NCBI GenBank assembly: GCA_902787305.1
Contig: CADAFS010000005.1
Coordinates: 1 to 63,575, forward strand
Direction: 5' to 3'
DNA length: 63,575 nucleotides
Origin: an uncultured Pseudomonadota bacterium
GTDB taxonomy: Bacteria; Pseudomonadota; Alphaproteobacteria; Rs-D84
A program made the translations under genes and the position numbers. The notes under the pieces are model-generated. The model did not search any database, had not been told where the DNA came from, and was given only the letters and a program-made list of their open reading frames with translations. This document shows positions 6,637-25,298 of this stretch, one piece after another. Within the stretch, counting starts at the first letter, position 1. Every line of letters starts with the position of its first letter.

Positions 6637-7467
6637 ATGAATCACTGCATAATATTTTTGATGACATCGCTACTGATTATATCAACCACCTATGCGGCAG
6701 ACCCATTTAATCGCCCAAGCTGCTTATATAACCTAGACGTCGCCGCCATAAAATCCGCCACTGGTATAACGGACACTGACACAAAAGAACAGGTGTTTAA
6801 CAAAATCTCTAAAAAAAAGGATTCCTTTCTTGATGCTGTCGTAAAAACTATTAAAGAAAAATGCCTTTTTGAAACTGCTAATATCAAATCGTTTAATGAT
6901 TTCATGGATGATAGTGAAACCATTCCAATCAAATTAAAAATAAATAACGCACTGTTTGTAGACATTCCTATAACACGATCAACATTTTCTCAGCACTTGG
7001 CACTTCAAACGCATGTTGTAGTTTTAACAAATCCTTCTCGTTTTATACCAGGTACTGTCGTAACTGTTTCTGACCTGCAAAGTGATGTCCCTAATCATTG
7101 TGCTGGCCGTTATTATGAAAAACAGTACTTTGCAAATAATACTCCTTGTTCGGATACACCTTTATCAGATGCGGCAAAGAATAGTTTTATCAATAAATAC
7201 AAGTACAATTTTGCTCTAGCAAAAAACAGTAAACTGTTGACAGGAGAATTATATCAACGCACTGAATATTGCTTAGGGAAACGAATACAGTTCACTCCTG
7301 TTGTCGACACCAATTATTATCGTCAGCGAGAAAACGTGAGAAAGTTTTCCGAACAGTTAAAAAACACAGCCTGTACAGGTGAAAATATCACGGTATATGT
7401 AATGTACGAATCTAGCCCTAAAGACAACAACTATATCGTTCTAGATGGCCCATACATTATCCCATGA
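6637..7467 (+). CDS. secreted hypothetical protein
   Basis: Signal peptide ending TTYAA. AT-richer by eye than its neighbours. Its TGA stop overlaps the next start (ATGA). Confidence 0.55.
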   Translation: MNHCIIFLMTSLLIISTTYAADPFNRPSCLYNLDVAAIKSATGITDTDTKEQVFNKISKKKDSFLDAVVKTIKEKCLFETANIKSFNDFMDDSETIPIKLKINNALFVDIPITRSTFSQHLALQTHVVVLTNPSRFIPGTVVTVSDLQSDVPNHCAGRYYEKQYFANNTPCSDTPLSDAAKNSFINKYKYNFALAKNSKLLTGELYQRTEYCLGKRIQFTPVVDTNYYRQRENVRKFSEQLKNTACTGENITVYVMYESSPKDNNYIVLDGPYIIP

Positions 7468-9650
7468 AAAAACTAATTCCGTTTCTGCTTCTCCTCCCCC
7501 TCTCCGCTTTTGCGGCGGGCGGCGGGGTTACACAGACCGCCGAATTGCTGAACGCGAATGCGCCGGCAAATACGACATGTGTGCGTAATGCCTTTGTGAA
7601 CGCGCTTTATGAAAATGCGGATAAAATTGATGAAGACGCACCGGAATCCGCGGTTAAACAATGGATATATGACACAATTCAATCCGCCGAAACATTGGGC
7701 GATGTTTTAACTTGCCCCGAAATTATGGATGCGGACGAAAACGAAACTATTAGATTTTTACCAATACAATACACATTTCCAAACGGTCGTGAAATTATTG
7801 TAAATTATGAAACGCAAGCACGTGTTTTGGAACAGCGTTTCATGCTTGCCACCAAAACGGAATTACCAACCACCGACCCAAATCCCGCGATTTCCGAATT
7901 TGATGAAACCGCAACATGGACGAACACCGAACCCGCATGGTATGGAATTATGGTTGTGCAATCGGGCGCATTACGCGACATGGTCGGCCCCGATAAAAAC
8001 AATACCGTTTCAATGAAATATATCATTGATAATATCGGCAATTTGTACCCGCGCGACACGGACGGCGTGTGTTCCACGCGTTCGGGCATGACCGCAAAAC
8101 TGCGCAATTCCATGATTCATAAGGTTATGCACGAACACACCGCAAAACATGACGACGATAACAATAATTACTATATCGCCGGCGATATAAATTTGCGTTG
8201 GATATCATTTGCGGAAATCGCACTTGATATTGCACTTACGGTCGTCAGTTTCGGTGGTTTCGCCGCCGCCGAAGGCGCCATTAAAACGGCACGCGCGACA
8301 AAGATTATCGGCAAAATTGGCAAGAATATGAAAACACTTACCAAAATCGAAAACGTTCAAAAATATATTCGTGAATCACTGAAAATTGCGCGTCTAACCA
8401 AAGAAATCGACAACATGAACGATATGACAAAAACAATCAAAACCATCGACAAACTTGAAAAGGCACTTGCCAAATTACCAAAGGATTCTGCAAAATATGA
8501 AAAAATCGCAAAACAATTAGAGGCCGCCAGAAAACTAAAGGCCGATAATATGTGGAAATTTGGACAAACAGGCTCAACCACCGTAAAAACCATGACACGT
8601 TCCCAAGCAAAAAACTTAACCGATATTGAAAATAGAATAAACAAAATTGAATCAATCGATGCAAGCCGCAGAACCGCAAAAGATGCAGATACACTAAAGA
8701 AACTGCGACAAGAACGAAACACTATTTTGAATAAAGTTGGAACCAAAGATCCTTCGGAAATCGCTCGTTTAAAACAAAGCGCACTTAACGGTTCAATCGG
8801 AACAAATTTCACAGACATCGACATAACCAAATTTGATGATTTAACAAAAGCAAAACTTGAAGAAATCGAAAAAACAAAAAAAACAATGTCGGACATGGCG
8901 CGCACGGATAAAAATGTTGCGGAATATGTAAAGCAATTTGATGAACTTAAAAAAGTGACAAAATATGTGCGTGAACTTAAAACCTATAAAAAGGCCCGCA
9001 CCGGAAATATGGTAAGCCGTGCATGGCAAGGATTAAAAAATACAGGCAAAAGTATAAAGACCGCAAACACCGGTGGCAAAATGCTTGATAATGCCGCCAA
9101 GGTTGCGGACAAAGGCGCCAAGACCGCCGCAAAAATCGAAAAAGAATTGGGCGGTGCCGCCCGCCAAGGCGCAAAATCGGGCAGGGCGCGCGACTGGCTG
9201 TTTCATTCAACAATGCGCAATGCCGGTCGCGTCGCCAAAATCGGCGAAGAACTTGCCGCGTTGCATTTCGTGCTGGGGATTCTTGGCGATTTCTATGATT
9301 GGACCAACACTGAAAATGATGAATTCACAAACGGAATAAATATGAAGCCGCTGTTGCTGCTGTCCGCCGACGATATCGAAGGCCAAGATAATATCGTGAA
9401 CTATGGCATGTGGCTAATGTGGTCGGGCGATTCGGCGATTCCCGAAGATGATGATGCCGCGTATTTGCAAGCGATGGATTTTGCACAAAAGTTTTACCAA
9501 GACCTGGTCGAAACCCAGGAATCTGAAAACCGTCATGCATGCGATGTTGATATCTATGTCGTTCGCCCGATTATCCGCAACCCCGGTGGCGAAAGTCAAT
9601 CGCTTTATTGGCTGTTCATGAACGATATTCCATGGTCCACCGCCCGATAA
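7464..9650 (+). CDS. large hypothetical envelope protein (signal peptide, two hydrophobic helices, Lys-rich coiled coil)
   Basis: Signal peptide LLLLPLSAFAAG. TM-like segments WISFAEIALDIALTVVSFGGFAAAEGAI and LAALHFVLGILGDFY flank about 330 aa of K/E-rich heptad-like sequence. Translationally coupled to the upstream ORF. Confidence 0.6.
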   Translation: MKKLIPFLLLLPLSAFAAGGGVTQTAELLNANAPANTTCVRNAFVNALYENADKIDEDAPESAVKQWIYDTIQSAETLGDVLTCPEIMDADENETIRFLPIQYTFPNGREIIVNYETQARVLEQRFMLATKTELPTTDPNPAISEFDETATWTNTEPAWYGIMVVQSGALRDMVGPDKNNTVSMKYIIDNIGNLYPRDTDGVCSTRSGMTAKLRNSMIHKVMHEHTAKHDDDNNNYYIAGDINLRWISFAEIALDIALTVVSFGGFAAAEGAIKTARATKIIGKIGKNMKTLTKIENVQKYIRESLKIARLTKEIDNMNDMTKTIKTIDKLEKALAKLPKDSAKYEKIAKQLEAARKLKADNMWKFGQTGSTTVKTMTRSQAKNLTDIENRINKIESIDASRRTAKDADTLKKLRQERNTILNKVGTKDPSEIARLKQSALNGSIGTNFTDIDITKFDDLTKAKLEEIEKTKKTMSDMARTDKNVAEYVKQFDELKKVTKYVRELKTYKKARTGNMVSRAWQGLKNTGKSIKTANTGGKMLDNAAKVADKGAKTAAKIEKELGGAARQGAKSGRARDWLFHSTMRNAGRVAKIGEELAALHFVLGILGDFYDWTNTENDEFTNGINMKPLLLLSADDIEGQDNIVNYGMWLMWSGDSAIPEDDDAAYLQAMDFAQKFYQDLVETQESENRHACDVDIYVVRPIIRNPGGESQSLYWLFMNDIPWSTAR

Positions 9651-9715: not shown

Positions 9716-10033
9716 ATGAAAAAACTTTTCATTAGTTTTGTTGTTATACTGTCAACCGCGATTTCCGCCCACGCGTATCAGGTTTTATCTTCACGCGAAT
9801 TGGGCAAGGGCGACGCACGAAACCAAAACGTTGTTGTCAAATGCACAACCGAAATGGGCAAATTATCAAATCAAACATGCTCGCTGCGCCGGTATGTAAA
9901 ATGCAGTGGCACCGGCATCAAGAAAAAATGCAGTGGATGGCAGGGTTGGCGTGATTTACGCAACCCGGAAAAGCAATTTTCCGATTGGCAAACCGCCGCG
10001 AACGAATGCTGTCGAACAATGGGATTACGATAG
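9716..10033 (+). CDS. small secreted Cys-rich protein
   Basis: AAAGGAGG RBS, signal peptide ending SAHA, 7 Cys in about 85 mature residues. Confidence 0.5.
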   Translation: MKKLFISFVVILSTAISAHAYQVLSSRELGKGDARNQNVVVKCTTEMGKLSNQTCSLRRYVKCSGTGIKKKCSGWQGWRDLRNPEKQFSDWQTAANECCRTMGLR

Positions 10034-10060: not shown

Positions 10061-10660
10061 TCAAAATATATCTGTATTTCGCAGATAATAGTAAAGCGTC
10101 GCCCGATTGACACGCAATTTTTTTGCAATTTGGGCTTTACTAAGTCCCATATCAATAAAAGTTATTATTTTTTCTTTGTTTCTGTCAAGTTTCAGATGTT
10201 TTGCTTGTATTCCAACCGGCCGCCCAAGTTTTTTACCCTTGGCCTTTAATCGCGCAAGGCTTTCGCGCACGCGTTCTTTTAATAATGACCGCGACAGTTC
10301 CGCCGACAACCCAAACGCAAACGCCAAAACCTTGGATTGTATATCCGCACCCAAACGAAAATTTTCTTTCAGTGTCCAAACCTGGCAATTTCGTTCAAGA
10401 CACATTTGTAAAATCCCCATAACCTCTAACAACGACCGCCCAAGACGCGAAATTTCTGTGGTGATTAAAATATCACCGTCTTTTAATTCTGTCAGCAACG
10501 CTCCCAATTTACGATCTTGCAATCTTTTCCCACTTGAAATTGTTTCTTCGACCCAAGAATCAATAACGATATTATTTCGTTTTGCAAAATTTTCGATGAC
10601 ATAGTGTTGATTTTCCCTGGTTTGATGGCTGGTTGAAACACGACAATACCCATAAATCAT
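10061..10660 (-). CDS. small serine recombinase (resolvase/invertase family, Hin/Gin-like)
   Basis: Begins MIYGYCRVSTSHQ (catalytic Ser context YxRVST.Q). Also has GD.L......RLGRS and a C-terminal HTH (LSKAQIAKKLRVNRATLYYYL). AAGGGAG RBS precedes the ATG at 10660. Confidence 0.85.
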   Translation of the reverse strand: MIYGYCRVSTSHQTRENQHYVIENFAKRNNIVIDSWVEETISSGKRLQDRKLGALLTELKDGDILITTEISRLGRSLLEVMGILQMCLERNCQVWTLKENFRLGADIQSKVLAFAFGLSAELSRSLLKERVRESLARLKAKGKKLGRPVGIQAKHLKLDRNKEKIITFIDMGLSKAQIAKKLRVNRATLYYYLRNTDIF

Positions 10661-10762
10661 GATAACTCCCTTTGGTGCTTTTGTTATAAAAAAAGGCACC
10701 TGAAAAAAATTTCAGCGCCCATGTTTCGCGGTTGAATATAGTAGATTTTTCCCTAATTTCAA

Positions 10763-10795
10763 GTGTTGAAAAAAACCTAGGTTTTTAGTCAACAC
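10763..10795. promoter_or_regulatory. hix-like palindromic recombination site (left)
   Basis: GTGTTGAAAAAAACCTAGGTTTTTAGTCAACAC is an imperfect palindrome. Its AAACC-TA-GGTTT core resembles the crossover sites of Hin/Gin-type invertases, as I recall them. Confidence 0.6.
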
Positions 10796-10871
10796 TTTTT
10801 TTCAAAAAATCAAAATTTTTATTTTGTGTAAAATCAATAACTTACAAATTTCCAAATTTTGGCCGAACAAG

Positions 10872-10900
10872 GTGTCAAAAAACCTAGGTTTTTTTAACAT
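10872..10900. promoter_or_regulatory. hix-like palindromic recombination site (right)
   Basis: GTGTCAAAAAACCTAGGTTTTTTTAACAT has the same core. The CCTAGG centres (10776-10781 and 10883-10888) are 107 bp apart. I saw CCTAGG nowhere else in the window. Confidence 0.6.
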
Positions 10901-10961
10901 AACATCGTGCCTTAAAAGGAATGGCCTTTTAAGAGTTTAACGTTAAACCAAGGAGAAAAAA

Positions 10962-12737
10962 ATGTTAAGACAATCAAAAACAACAATCAAAGAATTGTCT
11001 GCGCAATACCGCAGTGTATTGAAACGGGCATTCTTGGCGGGTGTTATTGCACTAACGACATCGGTCGCCACCGCAAATACAGATGTAACATTTGCGGGTG
11101 ATTATACAGATAATAGCGGAACAACACAAAATGTTGCAAACGGCGCACCGGGTGCCCAAAACTTTACATACGACGGGACAAATGCAAATGGAACCGCAAA
11201 TGAAGGTATAAGTTCAAACACCACGACCGGTGTTAGCCAGGCTAACTTTGCATATACCTTGGCCGATGGAACAACAGAAACACTTGAATCAGGCAATACA
11301 TATACCGCCGGTGATTATACCGCAAGTACAGTTGCAGGAACGACCGGATACGAAAATGTATCTGTTGCCGATGGATACGGCCTTAGTGCCGGGACGACGG
11401 TGGTTGATTCCGCATATAGTTATGAAAATCCGCAATACGATGAAAATATAGAAGGCAGTCAACAATATATAACATTGGACAGTAATGCCGGCGCACGCGC
11501 ATTGACCGCAGATTATGCAACAGATCCAGCATATACCAGTGGTTCAACAACCATTACCAATGCAACAACCGCCGAAGATTTAATCGGTCTGTATTCATAT
11601 CAAGCCGGGGAAGGGCACAGATATGTTCTGTCCGCAGACGGCACGGGTGTAAGAGATCTTGATAATGATGGTCAAGGTGTTGACCTTGATAACCCAGCCA
11701 TAGATCCGGATTTAAAAACGGCATTACAGGGAATGCTTGATGCGTATGCAAATGACAGTGGTGCAAACCTGACCGCGGCCACCAACGCATTAAATGGTAT
11801 GCAGGACGCGGAAAACGCAAACTATGCTGCAGCATTGGGTGCATATAATGCAGATACCGCAGCCCAAGAAACATTGGCAACAAATTTTGCCACATATACC
11901 ACGGCAACCAACGCATACGAAACAGCAACCAACGCGGATAGTAATTATCAACAAGCGTTGGACAACTTTAATGCAAACACTGCAATGTTCGATGCGGCAT
12001 CCGATGTTTATAACGCACCAATCGAATCAACAATCGATGATCGCGCACAAACGGTCGCCGAAGCCGTTGTTGCCGACGAAGCATCCGCACGTGAATCGGC
12101 AGATGCCGATTTGCAAGACGCGATCGATAACGAAGCATCCACACGTGCCGACGAAGATGCGGCCATCCGTTCTGAATTCGCAGATGCCGATGATGCGGTT
12201 CGCGGTGAATTCGCGGCGGCCGATGCCGATTTGCAAGACGCGATCGATAACGAAGCATCCGCGCGCGCCGACGAAGACACGGCTATCCGTTCTGAATTTG
12301 CAGATGCCGATGATGCGGTTCGCAGTGAATTCGCGGCGGCGGATGCCGATTTGCGAGACGCGATCGATAACGAAGTTGCACGTGCAACCGCCCAAGAACA
12401 GGCAATTCGTAACGACTTTGCGGCGGGCGACGCGGCAACATTGGCACGGGCAAACGCCTATACCGACCAAAGGGTAGATACGCTTGAAAAGAACGTGTCC
12501 GGGGGTGTTGCGGCGGCAACCGCATTGTCATCGGTTGCGGTGTCCAACGTAAAACGTGGCGAAGTTTCTGTCGGTGCCGGATACGGTTATTACAATGACC
12601 AATCCGCCGTTGCGTTTGGTGCCGCGATGGGGCTTACCGATCGTTGGTCTGTTAACGCGGGTGCCGGTTTGGCAACGGGTGACAAAACCCAGATGTCTTT
12701 CCGTGCCGGAACAAATTACAAGTTTAAATTGTTCTAA
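10962..12737 (+). CDS. trimeric autotransporter adhesin (YadA-like C-terminal anchor)
   Basis: Extended autotransporter-type signal peptide (MLRQSKTTIKELSAQYRSVLKRAFLAGVIALTTSVATA). Thr/Gly/Asn-rich passenger with 40-aa tandem repeats. C-terminus VAAATALSS...VSVGAGYGYY..QSAVAFGA....RWSVNAGAG........FRAGTNYKF matches a YadA-type anchor. Confidence 0.8.
   Translation: MLRQSKTTIKELSAQYRSVLKRAFLAGVIALTTSVATANTDVTFAGDYTDNSGTTQNVANGAPGAQNFTYDGTNANGTANEGISSNTTTGVSQANFAYTLADGTTETLESGNTYTAGDYTASTVAGTTGYENVSVADGYGLSAGTTVVDSAYSYENPQYDENIEGSQQYITLDSNAGARALTADYATDPAYTSGSTTITNATTAEDLIGLYSYQAGEGHRYVLSADGTGVRDLDNDGQGVDLDNPAIDPDLKTALQGMLDAYANDSGANLTAATNALNGMQDAENANYAAALGAYNADTAAQETLATNFATYTTATNAYETATNADSNYQQALDNFNANTAMFDAASDVYNAPIESTIDDRAQTVAEAVVADEASARESADADLQDAIDNEASTRADEDAAIRSEFADADDAVRGEFAAADADLQDAIDNEASARADEDTAIRSEFADADDAVRSEFAAADADLRDAIDNEVARATAQEQAIRNDFAAGDAATLARANAYTDQRVDTLEKNVSGGVAAATALSSVAVSNVKRGEVSVGAGYGYYNDQSAVAFGAAMGLTDRWSVNAGAGLATGDKTQMSFRAGTNYKFKLF
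12099..12378 (+). repeat. 120-bp tandem repeat (about 2.3 copies) inside the adhesin gene
   Basis: gatgccgatttgcaagacgcgatcgataacgaagcatcc recurs at 12102, 12222 and 12342 with an exact 120-bp period. Each unit encodes ADADLQDAIDNEAS.RADED.AIRSEFADADDAVR.EFAA. Confidence 0.9.
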
Positions 12738-12979: not shown

Positions 12980-13056
12980 TGGTGGATGAGACTGGACTCG
13001 AACCAGCGACCCCCACGATGTGAACGTGATGCTCTAACCAACTGAGCTACTCATCC
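12980..13056 (-). tRNA. tRNA-Val (anticodon CAC)
   Basis: Hand-folded cloverleaf: acceptor GGATGAG/CTCATCC, anticodon loop TTCACAT, T-loop GGTTCGAGTCC, encoded CCA. Confidence 0.9.
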
Positions 13057-13130
13057 AAAACTTTTTTCAGTTCCCCTCCTGTGGAGGGGTGGCGCCGAAC
13101 AGCGACGGGGTGGTCTTGTTGCCCGTCTTC
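13057..13130. repeat. tRNA-spacer repeat with CCCCTCC-TGT-GGAGGGG hairpin (copy 1)
   Basis: cttttt(t)(c)agttcccctcctgtggaggggtggc...ggtggtcttg/cctgcccgtct recurs at 13452-13520. Confidence 0.8.
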
Positions 13131-13234
13131 GTTTGCGCTGCAAACTCCGCCGTGGCATCCGTCTCCACTTCGTTACGCCGAGACTTCGCTGAATTTTTTT
13201 AATCGTGCGCACCGCGCGCGATAACAAAAATTCG

Positions 13235-13321
13235 TGGTGGGGATAGTGGGACTTGAACCCACACGGTCGCAATGACCAAAGGATTTTAAGTCCTCAGCGT
13301 CTACCATTCCGCCATATCCCC
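13235..13321 (-). tRNA. tRNA-Leu (anticodon TAA)
   Basis: Acceptor GGGGATA/TATCCCC, anticodon loop CTTAAAA, long variable arm, T-loop GGTTCAAGTCC, encoded CCA. Confidence 0.9.
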
Positions 13322-13375
13322 GGACCCTTTATTTTAATCATGCGGCGTTTTGCGCCGCGCGATAATAAAAATTTG

Positions 13376-13451
13376 TGGTGGAGCTGATGGGACTCAAACC
13401 CACGACCTCTACGATGCGAACGTAGCGCTCTATCAACTGAGCTACAACCCC
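13376..13451 (-). tRNA. tRNA-Ala (anticodon CGC)
   Basis: Acceptor GGGGTTG/CAGCTCC with the G3:U70 Ala identity pair, anticodon loop TTCGCAT, encoded CCA. Confidence 0.9.
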
Positions 13452-13520
13452 AAAACTTTTTAGTTCCCCTCCTGTGGAGGGGTGGCCGAAGGCCAGGGTG
13501 GTCTTCCTGCCCGTCTACGT
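13452..13520. repeat. tRNA-spacer repeat with CCCCTCC-TGT-GGAGGGG hairpin (copy 2)
   Basis: Same sequence family as 13057-13130. In addition, the about 40-bp tRNA 3' flank cactcaaatttcttaattc.caaa.cgaataacgaaattt occurs at both 12941-12979 and 13546-13585. Confidence 0.8.
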
Positions 13521-13585
13521 GCGCGTTGCGCACTCCGCCGCGGCACTCAAATTTCTTAATTCACAAAGCGAATAACGAAATTTGG

Positions 13586-13670
13586 TGGTGGGCATAAGAA
13601 GACTCGAACTTCCAAGGGTCGCCCCACTAGTACCTGAAACTAGCGCGTCTACCAGTTCCGCCATATGCCC
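13586..13670 (-). tRNA. tRNA-Leu (anticodon CAG)
   Basis: Acceptor GGGCATA/TATGCCC, anticodon loop TTCAGGT, long variable arm, encoded CCA. Confidence 0.9.
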
Positions 13671-24686: not shown

Positions 24687-24763
24687 TGGTCGGGGCGACA
24701 GGAATCGAACCTGCGACCCCTTGCACCCCATGCAAGTACTCTACCAGGCTGAGCTACGCCCCG
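24687..24763 (-). tRNA. tRNA-Pro (anticodon GGG)
   Basis: Acceptor CGGGGCG/CGCCCCG, anticodon loop ATGGGGT, T-loop GGTTCGATTCC, encoded CCA. Confidence 0.9.
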
Positions 24764-25036: not shown

Positions 25037-25141
25037 TACTTGTCCGTCTCCGCTAACGCTACGCCGAGACGCTCCGTTTCGTCCGCGCCCTTCGGCAAAA
25101 ACCTCGGTCGCGGCGGTTGCCACGGCAACCGACGGAACGGG

Positions 25142-25199
25142 CGAACCTGCGACCCCTTGCACCCCATGCAAGTACTCTACCAGGCTGAGCTACGCCCCG
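25142..25199 (-). pseudogene. 5' partial copy of tRNA-Pro(GGG), nt 1-58
   Basis: Appears identical by eye to 24706-24763 (plus 4 nt of 5' flank) and diverges inside the T-loop. Has no T-arm 3' half or acceptor 3' strand. Confidence 0.85.
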
Positions 25200-25298
25200 A
25201 CGACAGACAGCATGATAATATAAACTTTCACAATTTGCAAACAGATAAATAAAACCGTTATACACTAAATTTGATGATGGAAAAAATTTCCAGAGAAC

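Follow-up and report, generated by a model that had tools for sequence, protein, structure and literature searches.

A short DNA segment that occurs in nature in both orientations was found in a 63,575-nt stretch (hereafter the window) from an uncultured rumen bacterium of the Pseudomonadota (Alphaproteobacteria; Rs-D84; assembly GCA_902787305.1, contig CADAFS010000005.1). It lies between two divergent genes, one encoding a serine recombinase and the other an adhesin of the trimeric-autotransporter type. We consider it highly probable that this is a site-specific DNA inversion switch (inverton) run by a recombinase of the Mpi family and governing the adhesin promoter; as judged from the promoter elements at its ends, the adhesin promoter is very probably under its control. 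This is a known kind of on/off switch in compact form, and the split promoter and the short loop are what is unusual.

The recombinase gene (10061-10660, minus strand, ATG at 10660) encodes 199 aa with a full-length catalytic domain (PF00239 Resolvase, E 8e-29), and the adhesin gene (10962-12737, plus strand) encodes 591 aa with a YadA_anchor domain at the protein end (PF03895, E 2e-10). An earlier sequence-only reading of the window had described this divergent pair correctly, including a C-terminal helix-turn-helix (HTH) of the recombinase, for which the HTH_7 match was weak (E 6e-4, under the cut-off of the domain profile search).

Recombination sites and natural inversion of the segment

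In the 301-bp spacer between the two genes, the 17-nt core AAAAAACCTAGGTTTTT occurs exactly twice (10770-10786 and 10877-10893), 107 bp apart, and each copy centres a longer imperfect palindrome, in accordance with the two palindromes picked out by the sequence-only reading. Site 1, the recombinase-proximal recombination site (approximately 10761-10797), reads AAGTGTTGAAAAAAACC-TA-GGTTTTTAGTCAACACTT, with the crossover TA at 10778-10779 and 15-nt arms that are 87% complementary. Site 2, the adhesin-proximal one (approximately 10870-10901), reads AGGTGTCAAAAAACC-TA-GGTTTTTTTAACAT, with the crossover TA at 10885-10886. The 105 nt between the crossover dinucleotides (10780-10884) make up the invertible interior, which is rich in A/T tracts. 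The window contains only two copies of the hexamer CCTAGG (10776 and 10883), each within the switch, whereas its base composition predicts 11.6; its absence elsewhere had been claimed before and proved correct. The 14-nt core with up to two mismatches would be expected 0.44 times by chance in the window, and no further compatible site was found there, the sole near match (31798) having an AA core and two mismatches. As a separate observation, a restriction system, or avoidance of CTAG in general, could account for the scarcity of CCTAGG.

Contigs of the window species were gathered via the neighbouring encoded 105-aa protein, which yielded 10 usable contigs including the window's own (L175). 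One of them, L180 (ENA ERZ28614314, scaffold_3422), carries the segment reversed. Its recombinase-side flank was identical to the window at 994 of 1004 positions, and its interior matched window positions 10780-10884 at 105/105 positions as the reverse complement but at only 74/105 in the direct sense. The junctions of L180, GTGTTGAAAAAAACC-TA-GGTTTTTTGACACC and GTTGACTAAAAACC-TA-GGTTTTTTTAACAT, match the prediction for exchange at both TA dinucleotides, and the breakpoints fall in the CC-TA-GG cores of both sites. The junctions of the OFF orientation are GTGTTGAAAAAAACCTAGGTTTTTAGTCAACAC and GGTGTCAAAAAACCTAGGTTTTTTTAACAT, and those of the ON orientation are GTGTTGAAAAAAACCTAGGTTTTTTGACACC and GTTGACTAAAAACCTAGGTTTTTTTAACAT.

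The same was observed in two related species. In the second species, L105 is oriented oppositely to L104, L023, and L024: the recombinase-side flanks of L104 and L105 shared 693/700 positions and their interiors 102/106 as the reverse complement, and for L023 against L105 the values were 300/304 for the target-side flank and 104/106 for the interior. In the third species, L016 and L099 had flanks identical at 689/700 positions and interiors identical at 102/105 as the reverse complement, with opposite orientations. Between species, L020 and L026, as well as L039/L107 and L106, were also oppositely oriented. The contigs with opposite orientations derive from different projects, samples, and assemblies. 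Inversion of the segment in nature is thus shown. The short invertible segment with the recombinase gene outside it, as proposed earlier, is therefore real, and where a single orientation had been named as the outcome that would count against a switch, an exactly inverted form was found within the same species.

A survey of loci whose recombinases are at least 68% identical to that of the window (20 GTDB loci and further metagenome loci) revealed two AACC-NN-GGTT sites upstream of the recombinase, 106-130 bp apart; the distance between crossover points is 107 bp in the window and 106-111 bp in most species. Across approximately 20 species, the central dinucleotides of the paired sites were always TA/TA, AA/TT, or TT/AA, and the same asymmetric dinucleotide was never found in the same sense at both sites. 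This covariation is what a serine invertase demands: once inverted sites have rotated by 180 degrees, their 2-bp overhangs have to pair. Such a pattern is not imposed by protein binding alone, and it argues that the sites act as recombination sites. Since AA/TT cores exclude deletion, inversion alone is possible in the relatives that carry them. In the window species, the TA core is palindromic and deletion would be possible in principle too. The sequence-only reading had allowed for inversion or deletion; the inversion was found, and a deleted form was seen in none of the contigs. A palindromic TA core also raises the question of how directionality is kept.

Some loci depart from this pattern. 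In L030, a C-to-T change in the proximal core (AAAC-T-AAGGTT, at approximately -158 relative to the start of the recombinase) would spoil the site and may lock the switch. Upstream of the 73% identical recombinase of L021 and L103, no sites could be recognised.

The ends of contigs were also considered. The Logan contig L174 (SRR32285421) ends at window position 10786, the last base common to both orientations, which is suggestive of what a mixed population would yield in a de Bruijn graph. Many other contigs stop less than 100 nt upstream of recombinase genes (L040, L042, L069, L072, L080, L097, L098, L100, and L102), and the switch would explain such repeated breaks beside these genes in metagenome assemblies. 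L002 and L184, independent Logan contigs of the window species, both end at 10808, 29 nt inside the segment; graph branching between orientations was considered as the cause, and this position does not fit it.

Promoter geometry and the proposed switch

The four half-sites from 25 loci were aligned. Three of the four are alike, roughly GGTAnAAAAACC, whereas one inner half-site always reads GTTGAC(T/A)nnnAACC or GTTGATTnnnAACC, that is, a -35 of the TTGAC type preceded by an A-rich tract. This hexamer (TTGAC[TA]/TTGATT) was invariant across the 25 loci. When this half-site is joined to the outer half of the target-side site, a TAnnnT hexamer (TAACAT, TACCAT, TATACT, TACAAT, or TACCGT) lies 17 bp from the -35 in most loci; the spacing is 18 bp in L015, and L028 and L031 have weaker hexamers (TACACA and TACAGA). 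The hexamers on the recombinase side (TCAACA, TATACC, TGCGAC, TAGACC, and others) have no final T. A second promoter facing the recombinase in the parked orientation was also considered, and it is unlikely, as the hexamers at 17 or 18 bp, with ..ACC or ..ACA at their ends, lack the final T in all species.

In the window, the putative mobile -35 TTGACT (10787-10792, minus strand) lies within the inner half-site of site 1 with an A-rich UP-like tract behind it, and faces the recombinase (parked). The putative fixed -10 TAACAT (10895-10900, plus strand) lies in the outer half of site 2, and after inversion a 17-bp spacer would separate it from the mobile -35. A consensus promoter scan of the adhesin strand called TTGACT-17-TAACAT in L180 and not in the window, where GTGTCA occupies the adhesin-side -35 position. 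The replacement of GTGTCA by TTGACT, 17 bp from TAACAT, had been predicted by the sequence-only reading, and the natural variant L180 has exactly this arrangement. The idea of an ON/OFF hybrid promoter made by a -35 swap also gains from the geometry conserved in 25 loci, and we infer from this geometry that the switch would turn adhesin transcription on and off. The window would accordingly represent the adhesin-OFF or low state, and the crossover site would serve as the promoter spacer, with the -10 fixed and only the -35/UP half moving.

On these grounds, the following mechanism can be proposed. The recombinase would bind as dimers to the two ~30-bp palindromic sites with the core AAACC-TA-GGTTT, cut the central TA at 10778-79 and 10885-86, and rotate the 105-bp interior; that this recombinase is the catalyst of the flip is suggested by its adjacency and co-conservation. 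The interior would carry only the upstream half of the promoter, namely the A-rich tract and TTGACT, while TAACAT would stay outside. In the window orientation, the -35 would point to the recombinase side, where TCAACA would offer no usable -10, and the adhesin would be OFF or low. Inversion would assemble TTGACT-17-TAACAT, giving a predicted transcription start near 10907 and a transcript that crosses a 5' stem-loop before reaching the adhesin gene (ON).

The recombinase gene has a promoter-like site of its own (TTGAAA-16-TATATT, 10735-10762, minus strand), which lies outside the segment with its -35 abutting the outer end of site 1, and which the promoter scan found in both orientations (window and L180). 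The sequence CACTTGAAA adjoining site 1 is conserved in relatives. Because this promoter abuts site 1, autoregulation by occupancy is likely: recombinase bound at site 1 would probably repress its own promoter, and bound recombinase may also occlude the hybrid promoter.

Alignment of the interiors of 26 loci revealed a conserved central block of the segment (10826-10839), GTGTAAAATCAATA in the window and GTAAAAACAAT in relatives, to which an architectural protein or an activator could bind. An IHF site was considered here; by eye, the window agrees with WATCAANNNNTTR, unlike the relatives (GTAAAAACAAT), and such a site is not claimed. The segment holds many A-tracts besides this block, and together they suggest intrinsic or protein-induced bending for site pairing.

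Several points weigh against a frequently used switch of the Mpi family that turns the adhesin on and off. In the window species, one orientation is shared by nine of the 10 usable contigs (the window's own L175 and eight further distinct ones), and the closest sister species shows a single orientation throughout its contigs, so the switch may be strongly biased or rarely used. The evidence for the two orientations consists of consensus contigs. The -10 TAACAT is modest, with 4/6 consensus positions, and GTGTCA in the OFF state still matches 4/6 of the -35; the OFF state may be leaky. A 107-bp loop is very tight for serine-recombinase synapsis, for which neither an accessory factor nor an enhancer was identified. 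The score of the recombinase against the Mpi-family model NF009949 is just under the equivalog cut-off (263.3 vs 272 bits).

Recombinase family, known systems, and alternative explanations

Inspection of the translation found the catalytic motifs YCRVS(9)T and RLGR intact, together with a GRP arm and the C-terminal HTH. Against NCBIfam NF009949, the window protein scored with E 1.3e-78 over model positions 1-196 of 203. When the model was calibrated, close relatives scored 262-267 bits, the same-lineage paralog L088 reached 314.9 bits (above the cut-off), and phage Mu Gin scored 58.8 bits. Identity to Gin was 28% over 195 residues. In a PDB search, Gin was matched with E 1.2e-8 and Tn3 resolvase with E 6e-10, and Tn3/gamma-delta resolvases score as well as Gin. 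These model scores place the enzyme clearly within the clade of the Mpi "master invertase", although slightly below the equivalog threshold; the Gin identity and the model scores led us to reject membership of the Hin/Gin subfamily. The label "Hin-like" given in the sequence-only reading therefore holds for the sites, with their gix core, and fails for the protein.

The behaviour of the locus combines traits of several groups. As is typical of Mpi, a short promoter-bearing segment outside the enzyme's own gene is inverted, with both orientations in three species. As in Hin/Gin systems, there are inverted sites of ~26 bp of the hix/gix type with a 2-bp crossover, with AA/TT or TT/AA cores in relatives. 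The features of invertons in general are also present: inverted repeats, both orientations, promoter-like elements assembled in one orientation, and a conserved geometry. The two sites are equivalent, in inverted configuration, and inversion was observed, none of which suits a Tn3/gamma-delta resolvase, with its transposon association, three-subsite res, and resolution between direct repeats.

In Bacteroides fragilis, the serine recombinase Mpi inverts 13 regions, among them seven capsular-polysaccharide promoters (PMC4747536, PMC10403206). The window system resembles it in protein clade and in having a small serine recombinase encoded outside the segment, as well as in the inversion of short segments bearing promoter sequence for surface structures in a gut bacterium (Mpi role: PMC4747536, PMC10403206). 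Unlike Mpi, which acts in trans on 13 regions (PMC4747536), one local site pair is visible here in 63.5 kb. Related genomes hold several paralogous recombinases, each beside its own repeats, and the host is an alphaproteobacterium with a trimeric autotransporter adhesin as the target, which again differs from Mpi. The window sites are gix-like AAACC-NN-GGTTT palindromes. The Bacteroides invertible repeats have a different consensus, one that a text search did not return, and the Bacteroides segments enclose the whole promoter, whereas only the -35 half would move in the window.

The two gix sites read from Mu, TTATCCAAAACC-TC-GGTTTACAGGAA and TTCCTGTAAACC-GA-GGTTTTGGATAA, have AAACC-NN-GGTTT in common with the window sites, which upholds the likeness to the hix/gix core noted earlier. 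Like Hin/hix and Gin/gix, the system comprises a serine invertase with a C-terminal HTH, a recombinase gene adjoining the segment, and inverted sites, which are likewise ~26-bp imperfect palindromes with an A-tract and CC beside a 2-bp crossover. Hin/Gin segments are ~1-3 kb long, against 105 bp here; the system further differs in its palindromic TA core and in having the gene, as well as any enhancer, outside the segment. What moves in the Hin switch is a complete promoter, and in the Gin switch a set of alternative gene ends. An Mpi-clade enzyme on gix-like sites 107 bp apart raises the question of short-loop synapsis.

Catalogued invertons are mostly short, with >75% of them under 300 bases (PMC11602134). 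The window shares with fimS (FimB/FimE, Escherichia coli), the RecV switches of Clostridioides difficile, and the invertons catalogued with PhaseFinder and DeepInverton a short repeat-flanked segment upstream of a surface or adhesin gene and, probably, ON/OFF phase variation. The fimS and RecV-type invertons are served by tyrosine recombinases and hold the whole promoter inside the segment. In the window, unlike in those, the crossover would fall in the promoter spacer, and recombinase half-sites would double as -35 and -10. A literature search for split -35/-10 invertons returned nothing relevant, and the papers found on Rs-D84 or Candidatus Enterousia make no mention of recombinases, adhesins, or phase variation.

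The alternatives to an Mpi-run promoter switch were weighed against the same evidence. It is improbable that the contigs record rare inversions fixed in different strains, or a flipping that leaves transcription unchanged, with the TTGAC half-site being a binding sequence only. The two orientations are indeed documented entirely by consensus assemblies that come from different samples, most contigs of the window species and all those of its sister species share one orientation, and the promoter hexamers overlap recombinase half-sites, where binding alone could conserve them. Yet three independent flips occurred within species, with recombinase-side flanks ~99% identical (for one pair, the target-side flank at 300/304), one contig halts exactly at the orientation branch point, and a dedicated recombinase is kept beside the segment in every species. 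That TTGAC occurs in one of the four half-sites, and TAnnnT at 17 bp only in the target-side outer half, is hard to obtain through binding alone. There is barely any chance that assemblers flipped the segment at the 17-nt palindromic repeats. Inverted repeats can confuse de Bruijn graph assemblers, and several contigs break near the sites, but a 17-nt repeat is shorter than the usual k-mers and typical reads are expected to span it; with the inverted forms coming from varied assemblies, misassembly is a poor explanation. Several independent assemblies contain inverted forms, in every case with the breakpoints at the core, and the core covariation across species is explicable only by selection on recombination.

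The other two alternatives concern the enzyme. A classical Hin/Gin/Cin/Pin invertase of the kind known from the Salmonella H switch, which works through an invertasome with a Fis-bound enhancer, would account for the gix core match, the inverted sites, and the adjacent recombinase gene, and is nevertheless quite improbable: the protein is 28% identical to Gin, resolvases score as well in the PDB search, the Mpi model gives it 263 bits against 59 for Gin, and, with the gene outside it, a segment of 105 bp is too short to house an enhancer. A resolvase with a res-like site, or palindromes that are autoregulatory operators without inversion, we regard as scarcely credible. The recombinase promoter abutting site 1 and the resolvase scores in the PDB would suit it, but inversion was observed, the relatives have asymmetric inverted cores, the locus is chromosomal and syntenic, and a tblastn of the recombinase against the window gave no transposase or second serine-recombinase gene. 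The natural inverted variants together with the co-varying cores rule out the res-site or operator-only explanation.

Lineage distribution, adhesin leader, and gene neighbourhood

The closest 120 of thousands of recombinase relatives are 69-98% identical and all metagenomic, and the few of them bearing a source name are uncultured Alphaproteobacteria. The GTDB species representatives with the recombinase are rumen and gut metagenome-assembled genomes (MAGs), some of them named Candidatus Enterousia. Genomes of the order Rs-D84 are mostly <1 Mb (PMC12306168). The recombinase, the switch, and a YadA-anchor gene co-occur across species, always with the dedicated recombinase beside the segment; the order recombinase-spacer-YadA-anchor gene is syntenic in sister species, and the chromosomal synteny of the locus is kept across species. 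Most relatives have a YadA-anchor protein at the adhesin position, while some have another secreted protein or an HTH protein instead. At the sequence level, these observations are evidence of phase variation of trimeric autotransporter adhesins in uncultured gut and rumen Alphaproteobacteria with reduced genomes (Rs-D84, Candidatus Enterousia), which points to a surface-attached life under immune, phage, or partner-driven selection.

Paralogous recombinases of the Mpi family (53-61% identical) in the same MAG lineage have inverted repeats of their own, 11-21 nt long and 108-146 bp apart. The loci examined upstream of the recombinase match were L044, L053, L059, L068, L073, L079, L082, L084, L086, and L087. 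By eye, a complete promoter-like TTGCAT-17-TATGAA lies between the repeats of L044, L073, L079, and L086 and, in the assembled orientation, is directed at the recombinase. These loci appear to follow the classical design with the whole promoter inside the segment, unlike the split promoter of the window. Several recombinase/site modules can be present per genome (three in JAFUSU01 and two in SUUZ01). In the subfamily of L039, L107, and L106 (70-71% identical), AAACT-AA-AGTTT cores replace AAACC-NN-GGTTT and the split promoter is kept as TTGCTT-17-TACACT, with L106 oriented opposite to L039 and L107. The core types of the lineage include ACC-NN-GGT, ACT-NN-AGT, and longer unrelated repeats.

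We suggest tentatively, as a possibility that falls somewhat short of even, that such loci form a minimal-inverton design class, in which the site serves as the promoter spacer, enzyme/site pairs are orthogonal, and synapsis is short-range without Fis or an enhancer. Within such a class, recombinase occupancy and promoter activity would be physically coupled, Mpi-like enzymes may have radiated in gut Alphaproteobacteria of ~0.9 Mb (Rs-D84, Candidatus Enterousia), and 107-bp synapsis would perhaps be aided by a conserved bend in the middle of the segment. Such compact recombinase/site pairs (sites of ~30 bp and cassettes of ~105 bp), which appear to be orthogonal, could serve as genetic memory parts.

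The adhesin leader may provide a second control layer, formed by a stem-loop and a palindrome. The hairpin at 10911-10933 (plus strand), already noted for its 9-bp stem, is real (-11 kcal/mol, z -1.7) and would be placed at the 5' end predicted for the adhesin mRNA; its stem arms change together in relatives (CTTAAAAGG/CCTTTTAAG, CTAAAAAG/CTTTTTAG, and CCAAAAGG/CCTTTT(C)GG). It is followed by the invariant palindrome GTTTAACGTTAAAC (10935-10948), which is conserved in 12 related leaders and is a possible operator, and then by an AAGGAG Shine-Dalgarno sequence at 10950-10955. Other leader classes have GGTTAACC or TTTTTAATATTAAAAA where GTTTAACGTTAAAC sits. An Rfam scan of the spacer and leader gave no match.

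The adhesin itself (10962-12737) varies in its passenger domains among strains with a 99% identical recombinase and switch (L175-L185). The called adhesin products in these contigs range from 406 to 714 aa, and the adhesin-side flank of L180 is identical to the window at only 454/640 positions. L023 and L024 likewise have the same switch and different adhesins. Among the strains L175-L185, a large upstream open reading frame (window 7464-9650) also varies, from 634 to 728 aa.

The 105-aa protein used to gather contigs (9716-10033, plus strand) is Cys-rich, has a signal peptide, and is encoded convergently to the recombinase in every related locus; it had no family match, and identical copies were indexed in 73 blocks of the collection searched. 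Within the window, tblastn with the recombinase returned its own gene only, revealing no second serine-recombinase gene and no transposase. Just downstream of the adhesin gene, four tRNA genes (Val, Leu, Ala, and Leu) are clustered at 12980-13670. Rfam matches to HPnc0260 and Plastid-ycf2 were tRNA antisense only. Two tRNA-Pro(GGG) calls (24687-24763 and 25118-25201) lie 430 bp apart, the second being 84 nt long.

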